Assembly (NCBI GenBank): GCA_963769315.1
Contig: CAVYLG010000005.1
Span: 6,075-70,074, forward strand
DNA: 64,000 nt
DNA from: Candidatus Omnitrophota bacterium
Lineage (GTDB): Bacteria; Omnitrophota; Gorgyraeia; Zapsychrales; Fredricksoniimonadaceae
Direction of reading: 5' to 3'
This document shows positions 4,820 to 18,679 of this stretch, piece by piece. Positions within the stretch are counted from its first letter, which is position 1. Each line of letters opens with the position of its first letter. Below the pieces are notes generated by a model. That model was not told the origin of the DNA and searched no databases. It saw nothing but the letters and a program-made list of their open reading frames with translations. The position numbers and the translations under genes were made by a program.

Positions 4820-7800
4820 ATGAAAAAGTATTTAAATTTAACTCTTCGCTTCCGCTCAGAGTTAATGTTGAGTGAAATCGAGGCATTAAGAGCTAATATA
4901 GCTTTAGGGCTCATTTTTGTTTTTTTGGTCAATACGCTTGGGCCTCTGCCTTTAGCCCAAGCCCAGGATTTCCATTTGCCTGCGCCAGGGGTGATGATCC
5001 AATTAAGCCCTGAATTCAATCCGCCAATCCTCAAAGGTATCAAAGTCCATCCCGACAATCCTTTTAGGTTCGATTTCATTTTAGATCGTGGTGATTCCCT
5101 TCCCCTTGAAGGGAAGGTAAGAGAGGGGGACCTAAAACAAGAAGCTACTAAACTCATTAAATACTTCCTTGCCTCTTTGACCATTCCCGAACAAGACCTC
5201 TGGGTCAATCTAAGCCCATATGAAAAAAATAGGATCATTCCTCCAAGTTTTGGCTTGACCGAGATGGGGAGAGATTTATTGGCTGAAGACTATATGCTTA
5301 AACAAATAACGGCTTCATTGATTTATCCAGAAGGGGATATTGGCAAAAAATTCTGGAAACGCATATACGAAAAAGCAGCCAAGAAGTATGGGACAACAAA
5401 TATACCTGTTAATACATTTAATAAAGTTTGGATAGTCCCTGAGAAAGCGGTTGTGTATGAGAATGCGAAGGCAGGAACAGCTTACGTTGTCGAAAGCAAA
5501 TTAAAGGTGATGTTAGAGCAAGATTATCTCTCGTTGGCCATGCATGAAGGCATTCAATCCGGGCAAGTACAGAATAGGGACACCAACCAAATAGGCAGCC
5601 AGATTGTACGTGAGATCGTTATTCCCGAATTGACCAAAGAAGTCAATGAAAACAAGAATTTCTTCCAGCTACGGCAGGTATATAACTCACTGATATTGGC
5701 CACGTGGTACAAGAAAAAAATTAAGGACAGTCTTTTAGAGCAGGTGTATGCGGATAAAAACAAGGTGGCCGGAGTCAATATCGACGACCCGAAAGAAACG
5801 CAGAAAATTTATCAGAGATATTTACTGGCGTTTAAGAAGGGAGTTTATAACTACATTAAAGAAGAGGCAATTTCTATCCCCGGTATGCCGAGCAAGGAAC
5901 AGGGAATATTCCCAAGAAAATATTTCTCCGGTGGAGAGAATCTTTCGTCCATCTCCCGAACAGAATTGGTTTTGGATGAAGCAATGGCTACAACTCATAA
6001 GATCGATCTCCCCCAAATCTCATCGGTGAAGCCTGCTTTTTTGTCTGATATTACGGTAGATTTTCAGATGAGTTCACTGCAGCAGAAAAATAAAGCCATG
6101 ATCACGACAAAAAACTTCTTTAAAAGAGATAAAATTGATTGGATCATTGTGGGGCTTTTTGTTGCTGCTCTATCGATGTTGCCGGCTATTAATTTTGAAC
6201 TCAAGCATCAGGGTTATCTGCCGGAATTTATAAAAGAACATCGATTGGGACTGAAAAAATTGCCGATCACCCAACGTTGGTTCACTAATACCCCCAATCC
6301 GACCCTTATTTACGGTGAATTAAATGTTGACCAGGACTTTTACCCATCTAAGCTGAGTAATAATGTTATAAATAATATCTATGTGCTGAATGCAGAAAAA
6401 TTTCATGAAATGGCTTCGGATGACAGTAATATTGATATCTCAAGGTTTGATGGGATCGATTTCAGTGAAAACCCTAAATTAGATCCAAACAATAAGAATG
6501 GTTATTGGGAAAAGGTCCGATCAACTGAGGGAGGTCCAATTTTGGTTAAGCTACGGGATGATGTCTCTATAATACCCATTTACGAAGGCACATTTACCAA
6601 TATGGGCCGTGATAGAATTATATCTATTTTAAAAGAAGCTTCTCATGGTGAAGACGGTCAGTATTTTGATGGGACTAGATCAATTATTCTTCACTTGGGA
6701 AATGCAAAAAACCCGTTTATTCTTGCTCATGAACTTGGTCATCCTTATTGGGAACATGCGTTAGATGATCCTACCCGTCAAGAACTTATTTCTATATACA
6801 GAGATAACAGGTTTGGATTTAGTAAAGTATCTAAATGGGCCTCTGAAAGCAATCACGCTGAAGAAGCCTTTTGTGAAATGTTAATGACGTTGGTTAAAAA
6901 TCCCAAGGACATTAGAGAATTAAATAGCGTTTCCGTACTAAAACCATTTGTTAGGGAGGCATTGAAAGCTTTGTCCTGGAAGAATAGTGAAGGAGTGACG
7001 GTCATAAGGTCATACCACCGCCACGGGGATTTAGTATCGTTTGATGATGTCAAATTACCTAGAGGATTTAATGTAAAGGATGCTATAGCAGCATCAGAAA
7101 AAGGAGCTTATCATACTCAACTAAAATCAGGAGAGAAAAGGTCGGCTGGCGGCTCGCAGGGTGCAAAGAACCGGGCGATGCTCTCACATTCCGATAAAAA
7201 CACGGAGGGCCTTAGAAAATTCGAGGATTTTCTTAAAAAATTAGATGAAGGTTATTTTGACTTTGAAGAAGTTTTGGATGATCCAGAAGCGATCATTTCT
7301 GAGTATGGTTACAATGTTCCCAATTTTAGGAAGTATTTAAATAAAATGGTCAAAAGATTGAGGCCTATTTATAAACGGTATGGGATAGTTATCCCCCCTG
7401 GACAGGTCCAAGCCGGCTATGATGTGTTAGAGGCAGAGCATATACCCGTACAACGGCCTTCAGCAGAAGAAGAAATCGATGGTTTTATAGATTATTTATC
7501 TATCGATTTGGATAGTGGAGAGCCATTTCATTTTGATCTTGTACCCATTGAAGATCTAAGAATTATTGTCGGGGCCAGGACAAAGGAATTCGACGAATTT
7601 TTTGAAGAGCAAAAAAATGTAAGAAAAAGAGGGCAGGAAGATATTCCCCCAATTCGAGCAATCGCTGATAATGTATTCAGGGTGAATTTCGCAAAGCATA
7701 TTTTGGGACTTCAAGATGTGGAACCACTAACCAGGGAGATTGTTAGGCAGAGGGTTGGACAATTAGACGGGATACTTATGCCATATCTACTTCATTCTAT

Positions 7801-9047: not shown

Positions 9048-10616
9048 TTATTCAAATTTTATTGGAAATAATTTTATAAGTATTTCTTCAACCAACTTAG
9101 AAAAATTTTCAATCTGTTTGTCAGATATTCCTACTATTGCCCGTTCGTGTATAAACTTACACCTTAAATCATAATAATACTTTATTTTTTTCCAATCATC
9201 AGTGCTAATATTGATATACTTCTTTATTTCTGCATGAACTTTTTCACGACTTTTAAATAATGCTAAAAGATCTTCATTTGAGTACCACTTTCCAGATTCG
9301 TTTACTAGATATTCTTTAAAGGCAATTTCTAATGTGCTATCCAATAAAATTAACGCAATTCTATTTTTTTGTTCCCAATTTTGTCTTACTACTAAATTAC
9401 TTGCGCTAAAACTTTCATAACTTCCTTTAACCCAAGGTTTTTTCTCAAATAAATCTTGATTAAGTTTTGATAATTTTTCATCATAGCTTATTTTTGACTT
9501 CGGTAAAGGAGGTAAAAATGATGTTTTGGCATTTGGAAAATTTTCTACATCCACTGTAGTTATAATCCCTTTTTTATATTTAAATACTTTTTCATCCCAA
9601 TCCCCTTGCCACCTTCTACATAAGGACGCGTAGTCTTTTACAACAGAAACCAACCATTCTCTCAAAGATAAGAATATTTCATTGTTAAAGTTAATGCCAG
9701 ATTTGCTGCTATTCCAAGGCATTAACTTTGCCTTACCTTTTAAATTCACGATGACCCTAGTCAGAGAGATATTAAAATGCGGAATCCCAGCGGCGCCATT
9801 AGAAAAACCGACATAATAATTCTTAAGACTTTTAACAATAAGACGATCATTACAATAAAAATACACGCCGTATTCTCCGGCTGCAGGAGCTGACTCTTGC
9901 GACAATCCAGCAAGCACTTCTACTTTAATTTTTTCTCCTTTAGAAGCAAAAATTGTTCCAATATATCTTCGAGGTTCAAAACCAGGAGGGAATGCCCATT
10001 TTTCAAAACGAATTGAAGAAAGTTTTTCTTGATTAACTGAGATTGATATACCAAAGTTATCAATAAAATTAGCATAAGTTGCGCTTAAATATTTTTTGAG
10101 ACGAGTTTCCGCTTCCTCTGTAATGACATATCTTAATTTTTTTAATTCAATATTGGTTGTGCCTTCAGGAATTTGGTCTACTTCATAATAAGGTAAATTC
10201 CAATCTTCGTTTTCCAACCAAGACTCATCAAAATTAATTTCATAAGTTTTATCTTTTTGATGTCGAGTAATAATTCTTACATCTTGAGCCAAAGCCACTA
10301 CTGCTCTTTTTGTTCCAACACCAAAGATGCCTATGGTTTCATCATTTTCATTATTTCCTGTTTTTCCAGGAGCAATAATGTTAATTAATTCGGTAGAATG
10401 AACTCCCCCAGCATTATCAATAACCATGATTACTTGCTGATCTTTATTTAGAATTATTTCCAAATTAAGTTTTCCAATCTTGCCGTATTTAAACCAAACA
10501 TCTATAGTATTATCGATTAACTCACAAATTGATTTATTTAAATCATAATCAGAAATAATCGACAAGAATAGTCGTTTGGATGGAACAGCTTCTATTGTGC
10601 CTATTTGTTTTTTCAA
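9048..10616 (-). CDS. MORC-like GHKL (HATPase_c_3-type) ATPase with C-terminal HEPN-like domain
   Basis: Bergerat-fold motifs are ELIDNTIDV (ExxxNxxD), VIDNAGGV (DxGxG) and GIFGVGTKRA (GxxGxG). The C-terminal helical domain carries the Rx4H motif RCKFIH (nt 9147-9164). It starts 12 nt after the SIR2 gene stop. Confidence 0.75.
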   Translation of the reverse strand: MKKQIGTIEAVPSKRLFLSIISDYDLNKSICELIDNTIDVWFKYGKIGKLNLEIILNKDQQVIMVIDNAGGVHSTELINIIAPGKTGNNENDETIGIFGVGTKRAVVALAQDVRIITRHQKDKTYEINFDESWLENEDWNLPYYEVDQIPEGTTNIELKKLRYVITEEAETRLKKYLSATYANFIDNFGISISVNQEKLSSIRFEKWAFPPGFEPRRYIGTIFASKGEKIKVEVLAGLSQESAPAAGEYGVYFYCNDRLIVKSLKNYYVGFSNGAAGIPHFNISLTRVIVNLKGKAKLMPWNSSKSGINFNNEIFLSLREWLVSVVKDYASLCRRWQGDWDEKVFKYKKGIITTVDVENFPNAKTSFLPPLPKSKISYDEKLSKLNQDLFEKKPWVKGSYESFSASNLVVRQNWEQKNRIALILLDSTLEIAFKEYLVNESGKWYSNEDLLALFKSREKVHAEIKKYINISTDDWKKIKYYYDLRCKFIHERAIVGISDKQIENFSKLVEEILIKLFPIKFE

Positions 10617-10628
10617 AATTTTTTCTAT

Positions 10629-12245
10629 TTATTTTTTCTGTTTTTGTAAGTCTTTAACTAAGCCCATTACTCCTGAAACCACATCTTTAGCTTCGTTTGC
10701 AGAAATTGATTGAACGCTATGTACAGCAGTATTACGAAGATACATCCATTGCTTAACTTTTTTTTGTATGTTTTCTGGCAATTTACCTCGTTTGGAAGCT
10801 AATGAAAGCAGTGCTAACATTGGAATAAAACGAGCTTCTGGAGTATCAGTATGAGCTACTTGTTTTCGGAGTTCGCTTTCCAATAATGTAAACGCCGAAA
10901 TGACTGCAGCTCGATATGCTCGTATTGAGAGTAAGCGTTGTGGTTCTTCCATTAATGAAGGCTCAAGGGACGTAAAGATATTGCTTAGCCATTTTTCAAT
11001 TCTTCCTAAAAATGTTTTTGGGTCCAGCAATGCATTCCGTTCACGTATCAAATAATCAAATTGTTGAATATCTTTAGGAAGCGACTCGGAATCTTCCACA
11101 ACAATTAATATTCGTGATGGATCAAGTCGTGAGAATGCTAGTTTTAATTCGTAGATTGTATTTTTACTTGAGGCATCAACAACTACTGCTGCTGCTCTAG
11201 AAATTAATGCATCAATCTTGGCGGTAATGTTTTCTCCTGGAGAAATAACTTCTTCAGCTGTTATTGGTACGAGATTTTGACTTTTGACAATTGGAAATAC
11301 TTTGTCCCTATAAAAAGCTTGCAATGAAAATGGAATAGCAAAAAAGCAAAGTCGGGTTGCCGAATTTTCAGGCAAAGACAATTCTTGTAAAGGCTCTTCT
11401 TCAGTAACCTGACTAATTGGAATAATATTTTTACGCACAAAATCTCCTAAATCCTTAAAAGTTTTAGTGAGAGTCTCCTCATAATGATTTTTTGTTCCTG
11501 GCAAATTAATTGGCTTCACTCCCCGTCTTTCATATCTAGCCTGTTCCGGTTGTTTAGCGCCAACAGTTAGGACGTATGCTTGTCTGCGAAGCCTACCAAG
11601 TCGTTCTGAAATAGCTTGCCAAATCATTCGAAAATCTGGATCTTCTAGGCTATAACCAATAAAAATTGGAGTACGAGTAATCATGAGGCTCGAAAGATAA
11701 GTTACCATAAGAGGATATCGACTAATAAAAAGATCATAATCATCTTCTGTGAGTATCATTCGTTGTGGATGATGGATATCGCCATGAAGTTTTATGAGGC
11801 GAACACTAGAATCTTGCGAAGTTATCGACAATTGATCTTCATCAATAATTGGTTGACAATAACGCTGCACCATTTCGTAGGCACGCTCAATGAGAAAATC
11901 AAAATTTGTAGTACATACGATATCAAATTGAAGTTCAGCAAAGGCTTTATGGGCCATTCCTGGACGGGCTTTCCCAACAAGAAGAATATGACGTAATCTT
12001 TCAATTAACTTTGCTCGAGAATAATCATGAGCATATGCGGAAATTGCATCAATTGGACCTGTGTAAGGATAATCTTCAATTTCTTCTGCAAGTTTTCTGC
12101 CCAACTCATCCCAAAGTGGAATTTTTTTCCCTCCTGGTACTATAGCATTCAGAGAAAATCCAGCACCTACAATTGGCAGCCATCTACCTTCAAGAAGATC
12201 TTGAAGTAGTGGTTGAGGAAAATGTTTAAGATGACTTGGAATCAT
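10629..12245 (-). CDS. SIR2-family (SIR2_2-type) protein with a central Rossmann-like module and C-terminal HEPN-like domain
   Basis: SIR2 motifs are LPIVGAGFSLNA, CTTNFDFLIERAY and LIKLHGD. The middle region (CFFAIPFS...AAVVVDASSKNTIYELKLA) looks like a TIR/SLOG-like alpha/beta module (weak call). The C-terminus has RNTAVH (Rx4H) at nt 10719-10736. Confidence 0.8.
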   Translation of the reverse strand: MIPSHLKHFPQPLLQDLLEGRWLPIVGAGFSLNAIVPGGKKIPLWDELGRKLAEEIEDYPYTGPIDAISAYAHDYSRAKLIERLRHILLVGKARPGMAHKAFAELQFDIVCTTNFDFLIERAYEMVQRYCQPIIDEDQLSITSQDSSVRLIKLHGDIHHPQRMILTEDDYDLFISRYPLMVTYLSSLMITRTPIFIGYSLEDPDFRMIWQAISERLGRLRRQAYVLTVGAKQPEQARYERRGVKPINLPGTKNHYEETLTKTFKDLGDFVRKNIIPISQVTEEEPLQELSLPENSATRLCFFAIPFSLQAFYRDKVFPIVKSQNLVPITAEEVISPGENITAKIDALISRAAAVVVDASSKNTIYELKLAFSRLDPSRILIVVEDSESLPKDIQQFDYLIRERNALLDPKTFLGRIEKWLSNIFTSLEPSLMEEPQRLLSIRAYRAAVISAFTLLESELRKQVAHTDTPEARFIPMLALLSLASKRGKLPENIQKKVKQWMYLRNTAVHSVQSISANEAKDVVSGVMGLVKDLQKQKK

Positions 12246-12278
12246 ATAACTCTCTCACACCTATCAAGGTGCTAAATA

Positions 12279-12512
12279 TTAATTTTCCTTATAAAAAATT
12301 CTATTTGGTTTTTTTAAATGATATTTCTTTATATAATTTTCTAAATCAGCTAATGCTTTTTCTTTCGATTCAAAGGAGTCAGTGCTTGTTACTGATTCAA
12401 TTTTACCAGCTTGAAATCCATTTTTAGTTTCATCTTGATCTTTTGTGCAATATAACCATTCCCATCTATTTCCATTGTCAAAAATATTAATAATAACATC
12501 GCTTTTTTTCAT
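12279..12512 (-). CDS. Small hypothetical protein (77 aa) inside the SIR2/HEPN operon
   Basis: Intact ORF, 18 nt downstream of the HEPN gene and 33 nt upstream of the SIR2 gene. Only a faint resemblance to YegP/DUF1508-like small domains. Confidence 0.5.
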   Translation of the reverse strand: MKKSDVIINIFDNGNRWEWLYCTKDQDETKNGFQAGKIESVTSTDSFESKEKALADLENYIKKYHLKKPNRIFYKEN

Positions 12513-12530
12513 TAATTTCTCATTAAATTT

Positions 12531-13328
12531 TTAAGAAATCGTTTTAGTAATTTTTTCTACACCTATAATCAAATCTTCAATCTGATCTTTTGTTGGCTCA
12601 TTCTTTTTATCATGATCACAAAGATTTCTTAAATCACCCAAATGTAGAATAAATCTCCAGCTCGGTAAATCAATCACACTATTATCTTTTAGCGCTTGAT
12701 TATAATCATTAATCGTCGATTTTTTATTTGCAATGCTAATTTTATGATTACCACATACTTGAGATAAATGTTTTTCCAACACAACACCTGTCATCGCTCC
12801 AGCGGCACGTATAAAACCATTTTTATTTAATTCCCTTGCTGCTTTTAATTCTGAATCAAATAAATCTGACTGTATAAGAATTTTGATATCGAATAAGGAG
12901 CTATCAAATCTCTTTTCAACTGACTTTAAAATATTTAGTTGTTGTTTGAATTTTGTAACGGCAGCTTTTGGACCTGCTATTTCATCTAAGCCACGCGTTA
13001 CACTAATTCCATGTAAATAATCTTCAATAACATAACTATCGTTCGTAATTTCCTTTCTTTTTGGCTTTTCATATAATCTAACAAAATCATTAATACGGTC
13101 AGGAAGTAAAAGCTTAATTATCGACAAAGATTCTGAATACCAAGATTGATATTTATTTATAAAACTTGGTATAGATTTGATAAAGGGTTCTGCCTCATCT
13201 TTAAAAATTTTTTTTATTTGAGTTGTAAAATTCTCTGGAAAACATTCATATTGAATAGCATCATAAAGAGCATCACCAAAAGAAATAAGCTTTTTTAAAT
13301 CATTTTTATATTTTTCTAAGTTAGTCAA
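12531..13328 (-). CDS. HEPN-like domain protein (265 aa), first gene of the SIR2/GHKL operon
   Basis: The C-terminal helical domain reads AAGAMTGVVLEKHL...LGDLRNLCDH, with Rx4H at nt 12612-12629. TTG start; a TATAAT-like box lies about 14 nt upstream. Confidence 0.6.
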   Translation of the reverse strand: MTNLEKYKNDLKKLISFGDALYDAIQYECFPENFTTQIKKIFKDEAEPFIKSIPSFINKYQSWYSESLSIIKLLLPDRINDFVRLYEKPKRKEITNDSYVIEDYLHGISVTRGLDEIAGPKAAVTKFKQQLNILKSVEKRFDSSLFDIKILIQSDLFDSELKAARELNKNGFIRAAGAMTGVVLEKHLSQVCGNHKISIANKKSTINDYNQALKDNSVIDLPSWRFILHLGDLRNLCDHDKKNEPTKDQIEDLIIGVEKITKTIS

Positions 13329-13404
13329 TTTATCTATCCCTAATTATATAAATCAAAATTCCCTCTTTTAATATATTCCTATGAACTTAGCCAGTTCCAA
13401 TAAA

Positions 13405-15383
13405 TTATAATACTACAAATCCAATCCCTTTTAAATAATCATAAATAGGGTCATAATATATAGGGCTTCTCGTTGGATCTTGAATATCCCCTTTTGGGAC
13501 AACAATAACCATTCCTTGCCGGGCACGTGTCAATAAGACCCTATAGGCATTCTTAAGATACTCCTTGCGTTCGGGTTTGTTAATAGACAGCCACTTACTT
13601 CCACGAAATGTATGGCTCCCCCACTTATTCCCAAGATATCTAAAATCAGCATCCCAAGTAACACAAACCCAGTCAAGTTCTAGGCCTTGGATATGAAACT
13701 CTGTTGCTACATCTTCAAGATAATACGAAGAACGCACATCTTCCTTATCATCCAAAAACCAATGAATTGGGTCCATGGGTGATTTTACATCTATTGCATG
13801 GGGCTTTAAACGTTCTGCTTGCGAAGATACGACAATCCCGTAACGCTCGGTTCCCCTTGCCTTTTCTCTTAACCACTGTTTTGCTTTCTTTAAATCTCTT
13901 GTTATAACAATTGGATATTTAGAGCTTATTTGTTTTAAGGTTTCCTGTGCTCCTTTAAGGTTTAAATCTAGCATTTGCTTAACTAATAATGAAACATGCT
14001 CTGCGCGAAAGGAACGCATAGATACTGAAAGATGTAAATTATCGCTATAAGTGACATTATTCAGGGAACTCAAGGTTTTAAGAGTTTCTGTTGCCCGATA
14101 TTCCTCATCTGTAAGCCTGGAAGAGATATAAATCTTCCAATGAGAGTATTTCTCCTTTAACGAATTAATCCATTCACTTATACCCGCTTCTCCAGTATTG
14201 ATCTCCTGCCCTCCACCCACTAAACAAACAATGACTGCCCAATCAGAATGGCGATCAAGACAGGATATAAGAAATTCCGGTTCGGATAAGCTAAAGTCTG
14301 GCTTGCCTTTCTTGCGACGCATAAAATCTATTGTTTGTTCCTTATTCCATGCCCGTTGGGCTTCATCAAACAAGGCTACGTGTTCGATAGGCGCTTTAAA
14401 GGCATCAACAAGGCATTCATCTCTAAAGTTATGGACGTTCTGAATGAACATCTTAACTTCTGACATTACTTCGCCTTTTCTTTTTTTACCGCCAAGTTTC
14501 TTAATACGGCTTAAGTTTGTCTCGTGCTAACGCTTCCCTCAAAATTAAAACTAGCGGGCCATTGCCTGACAAAAAGACGCTATACATGTCATTGGATTTG
14601 TCACAATGTTTGGTGGCGATATCTAGACCTACCAAGGTCTTTCCAGCTCCAGGGACACCTGTAACAAAACATATGGATTTCTGATGTTTATCTTTGGAGA
14701 GCTTAATAATGTTGGATATTTCATTTGATGTTTGAGTTAGGTTATAGCTCTTTGCATCATTTCGTGAAATATCTTTAACCGCATGGCCGGCATATAGCGC
14801 CATAGCAGCTTCAACTATGGTAGGAGTTGGGGAATATTGGCCATTTTCCCAATTATTGCTTTCAATAGTATTGCCATCTGCAAGACGCAATACGTTATTA
14901 ATAGCCTCTTCTAGAAGCTTGTTCATTGATTTTGATAGGGAAGAACAGTTTATCGTTCTGAGGTGTTAAAACAACGGTAAAATCCGAACAAATTGCCTGA
15001 GTGGCGATAAGTATGGGGGCTACGTATTGATTATGACTTGTTGCATGGAAGTTCTTAAGATCCAAGGCATAATCTAAGACCTGATCTATGGCATAATTTG
15101 TAAATAGCTTCTCCCCTATTTTAAACTCTAAAACGAAGATGACAGGCCCGATTAATAAGACCACATCAATGCGTTGCCCCATTCTGGGCACTGAATACTC
15201 AAAATATACGGTCCCTTCATAAGACTTTAAGCAATTTCGAAGAATTTCTATCTGTTTGACCCAGGCATCACGCTGGGTTTGTTCTATGGCGAAGTCACTC
15301 TGTGCTGTTAGTTTCCCTAAAACTTCATCGATTGAAAATATTTGGAAGTTCTTTATGGAATCGGAATAGTAGGAGCGTTTCAC
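13405..15383 (-). pseudogene. DUF2075-family nuclease/P-loop NTPase split over three reading frames (no S24 domain)
   Basis: 14898..15383 carries the PD-(D/E)xK-like core RIDVVLLIG...FVLEFKIGEK. 14501..14926 carries the Walker A motif [10 protein letters not shown]. 13405..14466 carries the Walker B motif [10 protein letters not shown] and [16 protein letters not shown]. The three pieces lie in three different frames. Confidence 0.7.
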
Positions 15384-15442: not shown

Positions 15443-15757
15443 CTATTGTTTTATGTAAGCTTCCGCTGTCTGCTTATAGATTTCAAGGATATCTTGAGCG
15501 CATTCATTGAGACTAACTTCATCCATAAGATTAACAGAAGCAGCAATTTGACCCTCTTCCCTAACTTGATCAAATGCCGTAAACTTTTGCATTAATTTAT
15601 TAAATTTTAATCTAGAATCTTCCGGTAAATCTTTTTCCGGCGTTATATGTATTAAGTCATAAACTGCAATATTAATTAATCGAGTTCTAATATCACTATT
15701 TGATACTAATGATGACATTGCATTAGTTAATTTCTCCCAGCCATATCCATATTTCAT
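15443..15757 (-). CDS. Hypothetical protein (104 aa)
   Basis: Intact ORF between the two DUF2075 genes. No motif recognised. Confidence 0.45.
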   Translation of the reverse strand: MKYGYGWEKLTNAMSSLVSNSDIRTRLINIAVYDLIHITPEKDLPEDSRLKFNKLMQKFTAFDQVREEGQIAASVNLMDEVSLNECAQDILEIYKQTAEAYIKQ

Positions 15758-15824: not shown

Positions 15825-18212
15825 TTAAGAAAGGACTTTTATAAATTCAGCCACAATCATAAACTCCCCTTCTTCCGAATTAGGGATAACAATGGTTTTA
15901 TAAGATGGATTTAAAGGCAGAAGATTGATTTCTTCATGAACCCATGTATCATCTTCACCCTGTCGCTTTTTACTGGTGTATTTCTTAACGGTGTACTTGC
16001 CTCCGGTATCTTGGTCAATAATACTATTATGTTGGACCAAGACGATCTTATTATTACGGCTTCCTACAACCGGTGTGCGGAAAAGACAGTAGCTTCCATC
16101 GGCAATTAACGGCTCCATTGATTTGCCAATGACCTTTGTGACAAACATGTTACGGGTTAAGCGACCAACGTCTTCGGCTTTGATCCAGCCTTCTATTTCG
16201 GCTGAAACTCCTTCTCCAAAATTACCGCAGGCGGCGGCTAAGGTATAAACCGGTAAATATTCTGTATATTCGAGGTTTTTGGGAATAGATTCATGTACTT
16301 TAAGAGAACTTTCTTCTTCCTTGGATATAACATCGGAAAACATGAGCGTTTTATCCTTCAAAGGATCATAGGCCATTCGGGATTGAAAATATTCTTTTGT
16401 ATCTTTATCCATGAAATAAACAAATACCCCCTTATGGGCGCGGGAAAGCAATACCCGATAAACATTTTTTAAATGATTCACCAGGTCTTTATTATTTCTG
16501 GTTACTTGGGTATCGAAGGATTTATCCGGAACGCTTTCCCAAGTTTGCTTTGACTTGTTCCAAACCAGATCATTACCAAAAATTATGCCTATATAATCAA
16601 ATTCAAATCCCTGGGCCGTATAAACTGTGCCGACTTGCTCCATTCCACAGGGATCAGTGGCCCATTTCCAAAACTCCTTTTTGTTTTCCCAGGGCATTTG
16701 AAAATCTCCGATCTTAACATCATTGACCAAGTTGCCATCAGGATTTGGCTCACTCCATGCCCAACAAAAGCCGGCAACCAGCCTTGAATGATTAGGCCTT
16801 AATTCATTCTTCTCTATAATAGTTTTCTTTAAATCTTGGGGAGAATCAAAGATCTTAAATTCCATCTTGGGGTCAAACCTTGCCATATCAATATCCCGTA
16901 TCTCCAAGACTTTATCAAGCCACTGAAGATAGGCATCTGAGCCGGAACAACGGAATTGTGTTTTTAACTCAAATTCAGCGATATTTGATCCCTCAACACC
17001 GATCTTCTTTGCAGTTTCCTTAATTAACGCCACACTACCGATTTCTTTGGGCCTTACAATCTGGTATTCATCCAGGAAAAATATAGATAATTTTGCGGGC
17101 CTTATAAGGTCCTCGACCTGAGGATTCTTTGATCTAAATTTATTAGGAACTGCAAAATCATTGCTATTTGCCCTTATCCTATGGGCTTCATCACAAATCA
17201 AGACATCGAGTTCATTTTCTCCAAGTTGTGTAAAATTAAAAAAGAACTTAAATAAATTGGAAGCCCTTCTGCCTACGATCTTTCGCAAGGTATTAGTAAA
17301 TGCAGATGAGCCTGTGGCATGATAAACAACCTTCCCCTGCCTCATAAGTTCACCCATTACTTCTAAAGCAATGACTGATTTGCCGGTACCTGGCCCACCT
17401 TTTACGATAACAATGGACTTTTGGCCTATTTTTGACAGATGGGTCGCCTTATGCATTATTGCGTTAAATGCTGCTATTTGATCATCTATAAGATTAAAGA
17501 TCTGCTGCTTATGGATCATCTCCCCCGTATGATCGAGCAATCTCTTGGAAGGCCTGGCCGGACTTACTATAAACCGGTTAAAAACCTCAAAACCAGGATC
17601 GTTCTTTAGCCTTTCTTTCAAATACTGGCCTAGATCCTGGACGTCTTCTTTGCTAAATAAGGGGAATGTTTTAATAATCTTGCTAAATTTGGGCAGGCGT
17701 AATACATCTATACCTTGGCGGGAATAGTTATGGCAATAAGCGCAGGAATTTAATTCTGTCGGAGGGTCATCTTGAAATACTTTGAGAAAATCCAGGAGAT
17801 CATAATGGTATCCTTGCACCTGAAGGCAAGGATGAGGCACTTCCTTCTTCCCAAGAAAATCAATAATTACATTACCTTCGTTTTCGCAATCATGGACATG
17901 GTCATTAGACCATTGCTTTAACTCTATCAGTACAACACTATCCTTGTCCCTTAAATCCTTCCCAAAGATCAAAACATCAATTCTTCTTGTTGAATATGGC
18001 AGTTCATATTCGATGATTATCTTATTCTCTTGCAGGCCGGACAAGGTGAATGAATTATTGAGGACATTTAAGGATTGATTCCAGGCCCTATACTCTGACT
18101 CTTGCGGGACCCTATGATAATGCTTTGAATAGGCGAATTTGAGCTTATCTGCTATGCGGTTTTGGAGGACATCGTTGTTAAAGGCGGCTATGGTGTCGTC
18201 GTAAAGCTTCAT
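15825..18212 (-). CDS. DUF2075 nuclease/P-loop NTPase fused to a LexA/UmuD-type S24 peptidase domain (copy 1)
   Basis: Same architecture as 33506..35893 (27 substitutions by my count). The start is set at ATG 18210-18212 (MKLYDD) as in copy 2. The ORF-track extension to 18254 (MPFRRKPESSRKPP) reads through an intergenic repeat. Confidence 0.85.
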   Translation of the reverse strand: MKLYDDTIAAFNNDVLQNRIADKLKFAYSKHYHRVPQESEYRAWNQSLNVLNNSFTLSGLQENKIIIEYELPYSTRRIDVLIFGKDLRDKDSVVLIELKQWSNDHVHDCENEGNVIIDFLGKKEVPHPCLQVQGYHYDLLDFLKVFQDDPPTELNSCAYCHNYSRQGIDVLRLPKFSKIIKTFPLFSKEDVQDLGQYLKERLKNDPGFEVFNRFIVSPARPSKRLLDHTGEMIHKQQIFNLIDDQIAAFNAIMHKATHLSKIGQKSIVIVKGGPGTGKSVIALEVMGELMRQGKVVYHATGSSAFTNTLRKIVGRRASNLFKFFFNFTQLGENELDVLICDEAHRIRANSNDFAVPNKFRSKNPQVEDLIRPAKLSIFFLDEYQIVRPKEIGSVALIKETAKKIGVEGSNIAEFELKTQFRCSGSDAYLQWLDKVLEIRDIDMARFDPKMEFKIFDSPQDLKKTIIEKNELRPNHSRLVAGFCWAWSEPNPDGNLVNDVKIGDFQMPWENKKEFWKWATDPCGMEQVGTVYTAQGFEFDYIGIIFGNDLVWNKSKQTWESVPDKSFDTQVTRNNKDLVNHLKNVYRVLLSRAHKGVFVYFMDKDTKEYFQSRMAYDPLKDKTLMFSDVISKEEESSLKVHESIPKNLEYTEYLPVYTLAAACGNFGEGVSAEIEGWIKAEDVGRLTRNMFVTKVIGKSMEPLIADGSYCLFRTPVVGSRNNKIVLVQHNSIIDQDTGGKYTVKKYTSKKRQGEDDTWVHEEINLLPLNPSYKTIVIPNSEEGEFMIVAEFIKVLS

Positions 18213-18331
18213 TGGGGGCTTTCTTGAAGATTCCGGCTTGCGCCGGAATGGCACAATACAGGTACTGGATTCCCGCTTTCCCCCACAGAAGCCTGGGGGC
18301 AGGCGCGGGAATGACAGTGTTTTGACTTCAT

Positions 18332-18679
18332 TTATAAGCGATTATATTTGGTATGTCTCCCTTTAGCTTTGTGTATGGGGTATTTTAGGGCGTTTTTCTT
18401 CATTTTATTGACCATTGCGCTTTTTAAATCTATTCCTAAATTATCTGCCAATTCAAAAAGATACATAGCCACATCAGCAAGTTCGTCCGAAATTTCGTTT
18501 TTGCAATTTTTCCCATGCTGTTCAACTTCTTTTAGTGATTTCCATTGAAAATGCTCTAACACTTCTGAAGCTTCCAATACCAAAGAAAGTGCCACGTCCT
18601 TATGATTATGAAATTGTTTCCAGTCGCGTTCATCCCTAAATTTCTTTATCTTTTCAGTAATTGTTTTAATTTCATTCAT
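18332..18679 (-). CDS. MazG-like all-alpha nucleotide pyrophosphohydrolase (copy 1)
   Basis: FRDERDWKQFHNHKDVALSLVLEASEVLEHFQW ... SDELADVAMYLFELADNLGIDL is the typical small dimeric MazG-like NTP-PPase pattern. Paralog at 38603..38950. Confidence 0.8.
   Translation of the reverse strand: MNEIKTITEKIKKFRDERDWKQFHNHKDVALSLVLEASEVLEHFQWKSLKEVEQHGKNCKNEISDELADVAMYLFELADNLGIDLKSAMVNKMKKNALKYPIHKAKGRHTKYNRL

Follow-up and report, generated by a model that had tools for sequence, protein, structure and literature searches.

A block of four tightly spaced genes was found at positions 9048-13328 of a 64,000-nucleotide (nt) stretch of contig CAVYLG010000005.1 from a Candidatus Omnitrophota bacterium (hereafter the window, which means the whole stretch that was analysed). 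All four genes are located on the minus strand. In gene order, they are open reading frames (ORFs) of 265 amino acids (aa; 13328-12531, with a TTG start), 77 aa (12512-12279), 538 aa (12245-10629) and 522 aa (10616-9048, also with a TTG start), and successive genes are separated by 18, 33 and 12 nt. An initial annotation, made from the sequence alone, had described four minus-strand ORFs with these gaps, in exact agreement with the ORF list. In this study, we analysed the domains of the four proteins, the conservation of their residues and their gene neighbourhoods in other genomes, and we asked whether the block is one system or a set of separate genes.

The block is distinguished from its surroundings by its composition. 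Its G+C content (GC) was 0.325, as against 0.406 in the rest of the window. When stretches of 4281 bp across the window were compared (mean GC 0.398, standard deviation 0.021), the block showed the lowest value. The low GC pointed out in the initial annotation, including the 13 G+C among bases 9061-9120, was therefore correct. The four genes are not uniform in this respect: the GC was 0.286, 0.248, 0.374 and 0.310 for the genes of the 265-, 77-, 538- and 522-aa proteins, respectively, the gene of the 77-aa protein being the most AT-rich. A promoter-like site on the minus strand (TTAAAA, a 17-nt spacer and TATAAT; 13343-13371), identified by its match to the consensus, lies upstream of the 265-aa ORF, at a distance of 15 nt from its start. 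It is one of two minus-strand matches that scored 10/12, the second of which (8886-8859) lies downstream of the block. The scan for terminator-like sites found none on the minus strand between the four genes. The number of promoter-like sites in the region, however, was not above the shuffle expectation, and the promoter and terminator scans were at chance level overall. An operon is therefore not established by these scans, while the genes, which are arranged head to tail, are probably co-transcribed here.

Three of the four proteins carry an Rx4H string near the C-terminus, namely RNLCDH (12612-12629) in the 265-aa protein, RNTAVH (10719-10736) in the 538-aa protein and RCKFIH (9147-9164) in the 522-aa protein, at the coordinates first given for them. 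Other Rx4H strings, such as RPGMAH, RLIKLH and RIITRH, are also present in the block proteins, and the bare pattern is thus not rare. Since the pattern recurs in this way, the string by itself is weak evidence, and it is its conservation that counts. We therefore describe each of the three proteins together with its family of homologues.

The 265-aa protein consists of a helical N-domain without any family match (residues 1-149, nt 12882-13328, minus strand) and a DUF4145-like HEPN domain (residues ~150-265, nt 12534-12881, minus strand) that contains the RNLCDH string. Its family is very large, with 4135 homologues at 57-68% identity. In 28 homologues, the mean column identity was 73%, and E185, R234, N235 and H239 were invariant. 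When these 28 members were scanned, 9/28 matched Pfam HEPN (best E 9e-6), 8/28 matched DUF4145 (best E 9e-4) and 6/28 matched HEPN_Apea. The window protein itself matched DUF4145 with an E of 0.023, which is below the gathering threshold. The family profile gave no meaningful match to the PDB sequences, the protein had no match in PADLOC v2, and a tblastn search of the GenBank phage records with the protein gave no match.

The 265-aa protein can be compared with RAZR/PD-T7-4. The DUF4145 HEPN of RAZR is a proven single-gene abortive-infection RNase, which is activated by phage protein assemblies (PMC13017515). As in RAZR/PD-T7-4, a small N-domain and a DUF4145-like HEPN with conserved Arg and His are encoded by a single gene. 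Carriage on mobile elements or (pro)phages is also shared between the 265-aa family, RAZR/PD-T7-4 and the HEPN-type Abi proteins, and the role of an abortive-infection RNase, which RAZR/PD-T7-4 and Abi have, is predicted for the 265-aa protein. RAZR, however, has a Cys4 zinc finger, whereas the N-terminal 149 residues of the 265-aa protein are helical, match no family and hold one cysteine (C29). Since the zinc finger is absent, the 265-aa protein cannot be counted as a member of RAZR. It would seem to be a new instance of the DUF4145-like single-gene RNase type that is already known. RAZR/PD-T7-4 and the HEPN-type Abi proteins suggest, by analogy, that it would most likely be a phage-triggered RNase that halts translation, with the N-domain as the presumed sensor.

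The 265-aa family was also observed on 36 viral or proviral contigs of IMG/VR (L175-L210; L numbers here and below denote individual loci), frequently close to the contig end. Genes for terminase, Dam-like methylase, lysozyme and helicase were among its neighbours there. The families of the 522-aa and 538-aa proteins were found on two and one IMG/VR contigs, respectively.

The 522-aa protein could be divided into three parts. Residues 1-165 (nt 10122-10616, minus strand) form a GHKL (Bergerat-fold) ATPase domain, which matched Pfam HATPase_c_3 with an E of 5e-11; the same model matched 31/31 members of the family. Residues 166-394 (nt 9435-10121, minus strand) form an S5-type, Hsp90-middle-like transducer region. 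Residues 395-522 (nt 9051-9434, minus strand) contain the RCKFIH string and are assigned to HEPN as discussed below. In the ATPase domain, the motifs E32xxxN36xxD39 and G96xxG99xG101 as well as D67 and G71 were invariant in the 31 sequences. The motifs ExxxNxxD and GxxGxG of the initial annotation are thus present and invariant, but its third motif, DxGxG, is not found in literal form, since this box reads DNAGG (D67, G70, G71).

The MORC-like nature that had been proposed for this ATPase was borne out. The motif GhXhhpXXRhl in the S5 domain defines the MORC family (Iyer et al. 2008, PMC2292703), and the 522-aa protein has the corresponding sequence GVYFYCNDRLI at residues 250-260 (nt 9837-9869, minus strand). 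The motif was present in 30/31 homologues and in 0.6% of shuffled sequences, although it is short and degenerate and is supportive rather than decisive. The best PDB match of the GHKL profile was MORC4 (E 3e-4). The S5-type region also has an invariant PWNSSKS loop, in which K305 is a candidate lysine (basic) finger.

The full-length AlphaFold2 (AF2) model of the 522-aa protein had a predicted local distance difference test score (pLDDT) of 78.6. The 50 best listed Foldseek matches of this model were all Hsp90, TRAP1 or GRP94 (E 1e-13 to 1e-11), and most of the alignments to the Hsp90 family spanned ~370-425 columns, which correspond to the N-terminal and middle domains. The AF2 model of residues 395-522 alone showed six helices with a pLDDT of 90. 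Its ten best Foldseek matches in the PDB were all HEPN, with E values of only 0.04-0.5; these matches included AF_0298 (2hsb, template modelling score (TM) 0.65), the sacsin HEPN (3o10, TM 0.59), HI0074, HepT and YutE. E430, R485 and H490 were invariant in the 31 sequences. Among the Pfam HEPN families, RiboL-PSP-HEPN matched only 1/31 members, and none matched the window protein.

The GHKL family comprises at least 1674 homologues at 55-60% identity, which are found in Euryarchaeota, Omnitrophota, Acidobacteria and Bradyrhizobium. For 31 GHKL-HEPN homologues, which come from archaea and from many phyla of bacteria, the mean column identity was 75%. PADLOC v2 contained no match for the 522-aa protein.

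Fusions of GHKL paraMORC with HEPN in restriction-modification neighbourhoods have been described and likened to the anticodon nucleases PrrC and RloC (Anantharaman et al. 2013, PMC3710099). Apart from this survey of HEPN domains in 2013 and papers on sacsin, we found no literature on the combination of GHKL and HEPN. The C-terminal extension of paraMORC proteins is known to vary, with a predicted nuclease in paraMORC3 and a TIR domain in paraMORC4 (PMC2292703). The GHKL-HEPN family resembles the published paraMORC-HEPN fusions in its sporadic spread across phyla. Recurrent restriction-modification neighbours, namely BglII-type enzymes and methylases, were also found, although at a minority of its loci. 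The proposed logic, in which an ATPase gates an RNase as in PrrC/RloC, is also the same. There are, however, several differences. The published fusions use the Ymh HEPN (PF09509), whereas Hypoth_Ymh matched no member of the GHKL family at E <= 0.1. The 522-aa protein has the MORC-specific S5 motif, which goes beyond the features of paraMORC, and in structural comparison it is matched best by the N-terminal plus middle domains of Hsp90 rather than by MORC structures. In addition, unlike the genes of the published fusions, the 522-aa gene has no adjacent restriction-modification gene in the window. We regard the MORC-HEPN architecture as a probable variant of the fusion class that was described in silico in 2013.

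Sacsin is another protein of similar design. It has an Hsp90-like ATPase with a middle domain and a HEPN, and its HEPN structure (3o10) ranked in the top five when the C-terminus of the 522-aa protein was compared with known structures. The NCBIfam model of the sacsin N-terminal ATP-binding-like domain matched residues 29-115 of the 522-aa protein (8.6e-6), with 26 bits against a cut-off of 50. Sacsin differs, however, in that it is a eukaryotic protein of 4579 aa with three sacsin repeat regions (SRRs), ubiquitin-like and DnaJ domains and a C-terminal HEPN. Furthermore, the catalytic motif is missing from the HEPN of human sacsin, but R485 and H490 are conserved without exception in the GHKL family. 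The resemblance, one repeat plus HEPN, is an architectural parallel only, and no evidence of direct ancestry was obtained.

As a possible mechanism, ATP-driven dimerisation of the MORC/GHKL heads would bring together, or release, two HEPN domains, so that a composite Rx4H RNase site would be formed or broken. The 522-aa protein would then be a functional analogue of PrrC/RloC.

In the surroundings of the GHKL homologues, the nearest neighbours included a BglII-type restriction enzyme seven times, PemK three times, DUF4145 proteins three times and CAP12-type TIR proteins twice. A DNA-methylase cluster was found at 12 loci, 11 of which are GHKL loci. Toxin-antitoxin genes and other genes of defence type were seen as well. 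The BglII-type enzymes and the methylases are the most frequent neighbours at the GHKL loci (L094-L173; for example, L163 4093-4662 and L102 5781-6725), which agrees with the published association of paraMORC with restriction-modification, although most of the GHKL loci have neither the BglII-type enzyme nor the methylase cluster. Genes with Rx4-5H strings were located directly downstream of GHKL-HEPN homologues at three loci (L119 1762-2187, L146 2993-4045 and L137 3782-4525), and at a further locus the downstream gene encodes a RAZR-like protein with a zinc ribbon and DUF4145 (L170 2662-3432; 3.8e-11). We considered whether the GHKL gene is generally flanked by HEPN genes and rejected this idea, because DUF4145 was present in only 3/109 nearest neighbours.

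The 538-aa protein is composed of three domains, all encoded on the minus strand. The N-terminal domain (residues 1-280, nt 11406-12245) is a SIR2 domain of the SIR2_2/ThsA-like NADase type (Pfam SIR2_2, 3e-27). It is followed by a TIR-like Rossmannoid middle domain (residues ~290-430, nt 10956-11378), which was recognised by Pfam on family members, and by a HEPN domain (residues ~435-538, nt 10632-10943) that carries the RNTAVH string. The SIR2 domain matched PADLOC ThsA1 with an E of 1e-32, a match that covers only positions 6-230 of the 478 positions of the model, and it matched the ThsA chains in the PDB at 1e-14 to 3e-16. The SIR2_2-type assignment and the motifs GAGFS, TTNFD and KLHGD of the initial annotation were all confirmed, and the catalytic residues N114, D116 and H154 were invariant in 30 sequences. 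A Rossmann-like central module had also been proposed. This proved to be of the TIR type, since TIR_2 matched 6/30 and CAP12-PCTIR_TIR matched 4/30 family members (best E 1.2e-5), and it is of the CAP12/Pycsar-effector or nucleoside-deoxyribosyltransferase type. The invariant residues of the middle domain are R298, C300, F301, F302, P305, P336, G337, R350 and E366, the last of which stands in the context '…DxS…YE…'. The hidden Markov model (HMM) of the middle domain also matched, at 1.8e-10, a stand-alone protein encoded beside a GHKL homologue (L116 2178-3284, minus strand), the sole Pfam match of which was a weak one to Nuc_deoxyrib_tr (E 0.0035). In the C-terminal domain, E456, R504, N505 and H509 were invariant in the 30 sequences. 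The Pfam models that matched this region were Hypoth_Ymh (7/30 members), RiboL-PSP-HEPN (6/30), HepT-like (5/30) and DUF4145 (4/30); the window protein itself matched DUF4145 with an E of 0.014, below the gathering threshold. At least 1196 homologues at ~50% identity were found, including proteins of Methanobacterium and Bathyarchaeota.

The 538-aa protein resembles ThsA in its N-terminal SIR2 domain with the catalytic Asn, Asp and His and in the Rossmannoid nucleotide-type domain that comes next. The second domain of ThsA, however, is SLOG (STALD), whereas that of the 538-aa protein is TIR-like. The third domain, HEPN, is present in the 538-aa protein, whereas ThsA and DSR1/DSR2 are without it. 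Thoeris has an adjacent ThsB (TIR) gene, whereas none adjoins the 538-aa gene in the window. The reading of the 538-aa protein as Thoeris/ThsA was ruled out by the absence of both the SLOG domain and an adjacent ThsB gene. No name or description of the SIR2 + TIR-like + HEPN architecture was found in the searchable literature, which is incomplete. Depletion of NAD+ is the most likely activity of the SIR2 domain. The TIR-like domain, which takes the place of the SLOG of ThsA, would have a nucleotide as its ligand or substrate, and the HEPN domain would give homo-dimerisation and/or RNase activity.

At one SIR2 locus, a 416-aa TIR_2/ThsB-like protein (L077 9647-10897; 1.5e-21) is encoded 40 nt downstream of the SIR2-TIR-HEPN homologue. 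A TIR_2/ThsB-like cluster was found within 3 kb of the SIR2 gene at 4/80 SIR2 loci, including this one, and also at one GHKL locus. A Thoeris-like pairing of SIR2-TIR-HEPN with a TIR_2/ThsB-like gene may therefore exist in a minority of cases.

The relationship among the three C-terminal domains was analysed by profile-profile comparison with hhalign. Over 97 columns, the C-termini of the SIR2 and 265-aa proteins were aligned with a probability of 87% (E 4e-6), and their Glu, Arg and His residues were matched to each other. The C-terminus of the GHKL protein was aligned to that of the SIR2 protein with a probability of 33%, also with Glu, Arg and His in register, and to that of the 265-aa protein with a probability of 10%. 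The assignment to HEPN is well supported by sequence for the 265-aa and SIR2 proteins. The C-terminus of the GHKL protein, as judged from the AF2 model and the conserved residues, appears to be of the HEPN type but more divergent. The three HEPN-like Rx4H tails proposed at first are thus upheld at the level of the superfamily, the E…Rx4H residues being invariant in 28-31 homologues of each. The proposal that they are three paralogous modules is not, since they are not close paralogues and the values of 33% and 10% for the GHKL C-terminus indicate kinship at the superfamily level only.

To see how the four genes are arranged elsewhere, we collected 80 loci anchored on the SIR2 gene from species-representative genomes, 80 loci anchored on the GHKL gene from metagenomes and 39 loci from viral contigs, and searched them with all four window proteins by tblastn. 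At the 80 SIR2 loci, the 265-aa gene and the 77-aa gene were never found and the GHKL gene was found once. None of the other three genes was detected at the 80 GHKL loci, and none at the 40 loci anchored on the 265-aa gene. Of the 213 loci available for this search, 87 had GHKL only, 84 SIR2 only, 40 the 265-aa gene only, one the 77-aa gene only and one GHKL together with SIR2. Two of the four genes were thus present at 1/212 external loci, and three or four at none. This single locus (L060 94-3089), on contig DATIOS010000203.1 of a metagenome-assembled genome of Thermoanaerobaculia, has GHKL followed by SIR2, the reverse of the order in the window, with a gap of 68 nt. Its GHKL gene is truncated by the contig end, the housekeeping genes XdhC and CoxE lie beyond SIR2, and the proteins are 43-45% identical to those of the window. 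Clustering of the neighbouring ORFs gave no conserved partner gene for any of the families, the nearest neighbours varying in size and orientation. HMMs were also built for the three C-termini, for the middle domain of the SIR2 protein and for the N-domain of the 265-aa protein. Compared with all neighbouring ORFs, they revealed no paralogous HEPN neighbours except at L060 and in one split SIR2 gene.

Each of the three large genes was also observed alone. The 265-aa gene stands alone among housekeeping genes at L010, L011 and L013, the GHKL gene is alone on the long contigs L001, L003 and L004, and the SIR2 gene is alone on the long contigs L006, L008 and L009, at L008 between genes of lipoate and acyl-CoA metabolism. 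Even in the vicinity of the closest SIR2 homologue (L006/L016; 79% identity), the other three genes are missing. Since each family is large, spans phyla at 50-68% identity, occurs alone among housekeeping or unrelated genes and shares no synteny with the others, the genes are read as separate. The difference in GC between the block genes (0.248-0.374) was also counted for their independence. We therefore consider it likely that the block, at one end of a ~10-kb defence island, consists of three immunity candidates, each a single gene that acts on its own, plus a small ORF, rather than of a dedicated multi-gene system. The domain identities, the conservation of residues and the absence of synteny are results of the analysis, whereas the activities of the enzymes, their triggers and any defence phenotype are predictions.

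Several facts weigh against this conclusion. The spacing of the four genes on their common strand is tight, and they have an unusually low GC in common. No terminator-like site was found inside the block, and the sole strong promoter-like match in the block or ahead of it precedes the first gene; on account of these two facts, the genes may be one expression unit and may cooperate in this organism. The arrangement at L060 is a second, independent adjacency of GHKL and SIR2. The metagenome loci are often short, with at least 2 kb on both sides of the gene at only 31/80 GHKL loci. The matches of the window proteins themselves to the Pfam HEPN families are below the gathering thresholds, and the term defence is applied to the three families on the basis of context.

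A rival explanation is the model of the initial annotation, in which the four genes form one system and a HEPN-mediated hetero-oligomer couples ATP-driven sensing by GHKL to NADase and RNase effectors. The short gaps of 12-33 nt on one strand, the shared low GC and the lack of internal terminator-like sites speak for such a system. The three HEPN-type C-termini with intact Rx4H would also suit it, and HEPN domains are known to dimerise (PMC13017515). The distribution of the genes, however, is difficult to reconcile with the model: the 212 external loci lack the set or any pair of its genes, except for one GHKL-SIR2 pair in reverse order, each family occurs alone among housekeeping genes, and the closest SIR2 homologue has no partner. 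The HEPN domains are mutually distant as well, and no support for a HEPN-mediated hetero-oligomer was found in this analysis. The single system proposed for the four genes was therefore not borne out, there being no synteny elsewhere, and we regard it as highly improbable. The initial annotation did not recognise the gene set as a named system, and this agrees with our searches, in which the set was absent from PADLOC v2 and no PADLOC match was obtained beyond the SIR2 domain. NCBIfam named none of the four proteins, and PHROGs gave only families of unknown function.

A more limited cooperation, between MORC-HEPN and SIR2-TIR-HEPN only, should also be considered. In such a facultative partnership, the two proteins would act alone in most hosts and gain a function, such as shared activation, when their genes are adjacent. 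Two adjacencies, in the window and at L060, have opposite order and 43-45% protein identity. Some GHKL homologues, moreover, lie beside TIR-like genes (L004, L116 and L159), and the TIR of paraMORC4 is alternatively encoded by a neighbouring gene (Iyer 2008, PMC2292703). The GHKL gene, however, was near SIR2 at only 1/67 SIR2 loci with at least 2 kb upstream, and SIR2 was near GHKL at 0/80 GHKL loci. This rate is compatible with chance packing of two residents of defence islands, and the window, having been chosen for its adjacency, is not an independent observation. The facultative partnership is therefore unlikely. A stronger form of the idea would be that MORC-HEPN and SIR2-TIR-HEPN are a two-component module that was assembled independently at least twice, in which the MORC head, by ATP-dependent clamping, would use HEPN-HEPN heterodimers to control both the NADase (SIR2) and the RNase (HEPN). 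We consider this form very unlikely. If it were true, the module would represent a wiring of defence proteins through a shared RNase dimer interface.

The 77-aa protein (nt 12279-12512, minus strand) differs from the other three in that its family is small, with 7 short homologues at 37-54% identity among 1.8 billion representative proteins. No homologue was found at 200 loci anchored on the three large genes, and PADLOC v2 gave no match. Since this small gene lies directly downstream of a predicted RNase gene with a gap of 18 nt, the 265-aa HEPN protein and the 77-aa protein might be suspected to work as a pair, either toxin-antitoxin-like or of effector and regulator. The small protein does have homologues encoded beside other putative toxins or effectors, which are a NYN RNase (L214-L217) and the products of a Peptidase_C14 gene and an overlapping SLFN_AlbA_2 gene. 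However, 0/40 other loci of the 265-aa gene hold a 77-aa homologue, the 265-aa gene was found alone at L010, L011 and L013, and the 7 short representatives of the 77-aa family stand against more than 4000 homologues of the 265-aa protein. Among the 77-aa loci examined, no homologue was beside the 265-aa or SIR2 families. A dedicated pair is thus quite unlikely, and the 77-aa protein may instead be an accessory of varied effector genes.

In L214-L217, the 77-aa homologues (5001-5246) are located 150 nt downstream of the NYN-domain RNase gene. The homologue on the ENA contig of P0363 lies between the Peptidase_C14 gene and the overlapping SLFN_AlbA_2 gene, and the homologue in L174 adjoins a transmembrane protein. 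P0364 (577 aa) and P0369 (627 aa) contain seven and four copies, respectively, of a unit that matches residues 17-45 of the 77-aa protein.

If the block is read as a set of separate genes, the apparent operon with its three HEPN tails reflects how a defence island is packed, and it is a caution for discovery based on gene context. None of the three large proteins belongs to a named, tested system. What the block offers instead are three very large and unusually conserved families that are absent from PADLOC v2, MORC-HEPN, SIR2-TIR-like-HEPN and the 265-aa HEPN protein, and each of the three proteins is a compact single-gene candidate. The conservation of the GHKL-HEPN and 265-aa families is unusually high for genes of defence islands. 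The mean column identity of 75% and 73% across their respective homologues implies that they have recently spread widely by horizontal transfer and are strongly constrained. How an RNase is gated by a GHKL clamp could be learned from the MORC-HEPN protein, and this question also bears on the unexplained HEPN of eukaryotic sacsin.

The initial annotation had also stated that further defence-type genes follow the block. Such genes were indeed found beyond it on the same strand. The region 13405-15383 (minus strand) was matched by PADLOC as a fragmented PDC-S41-like helicase with ORFs of 161, 141 and 353 aa, which align to positions 1-155, 156-291 and 303-651, respectively, of the single PADLOC model PDC-S41. 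This model represents a DUF2075/Schlafen-group-3 helicase. Judging from these alignments, the region appears to hold a pseudogene, frameshifted or interrupted, that derives from a candidate defence helicase. The next large gene (15825-18679, minus strand) encodes a protein of 809 aa, in which Pfam recognised a fusion of a NERD-like domain, a Schlafen-group-3 helicase (1e-83) and a C-terminal S24 (LexA-like) peptidase. A 104-aa ORF without a family match (15443-15757) is located downstream of this fusion gene, and a 115-aa MazG-like protein is encoded upstream of it. No tRNA gene was found in the window, and a mobile-element border could not be shown. Together with the 104-aa ORF, the NERD-helicase-S24 and MazG-like genes extend the defence island to ~18.7 kb in the window.

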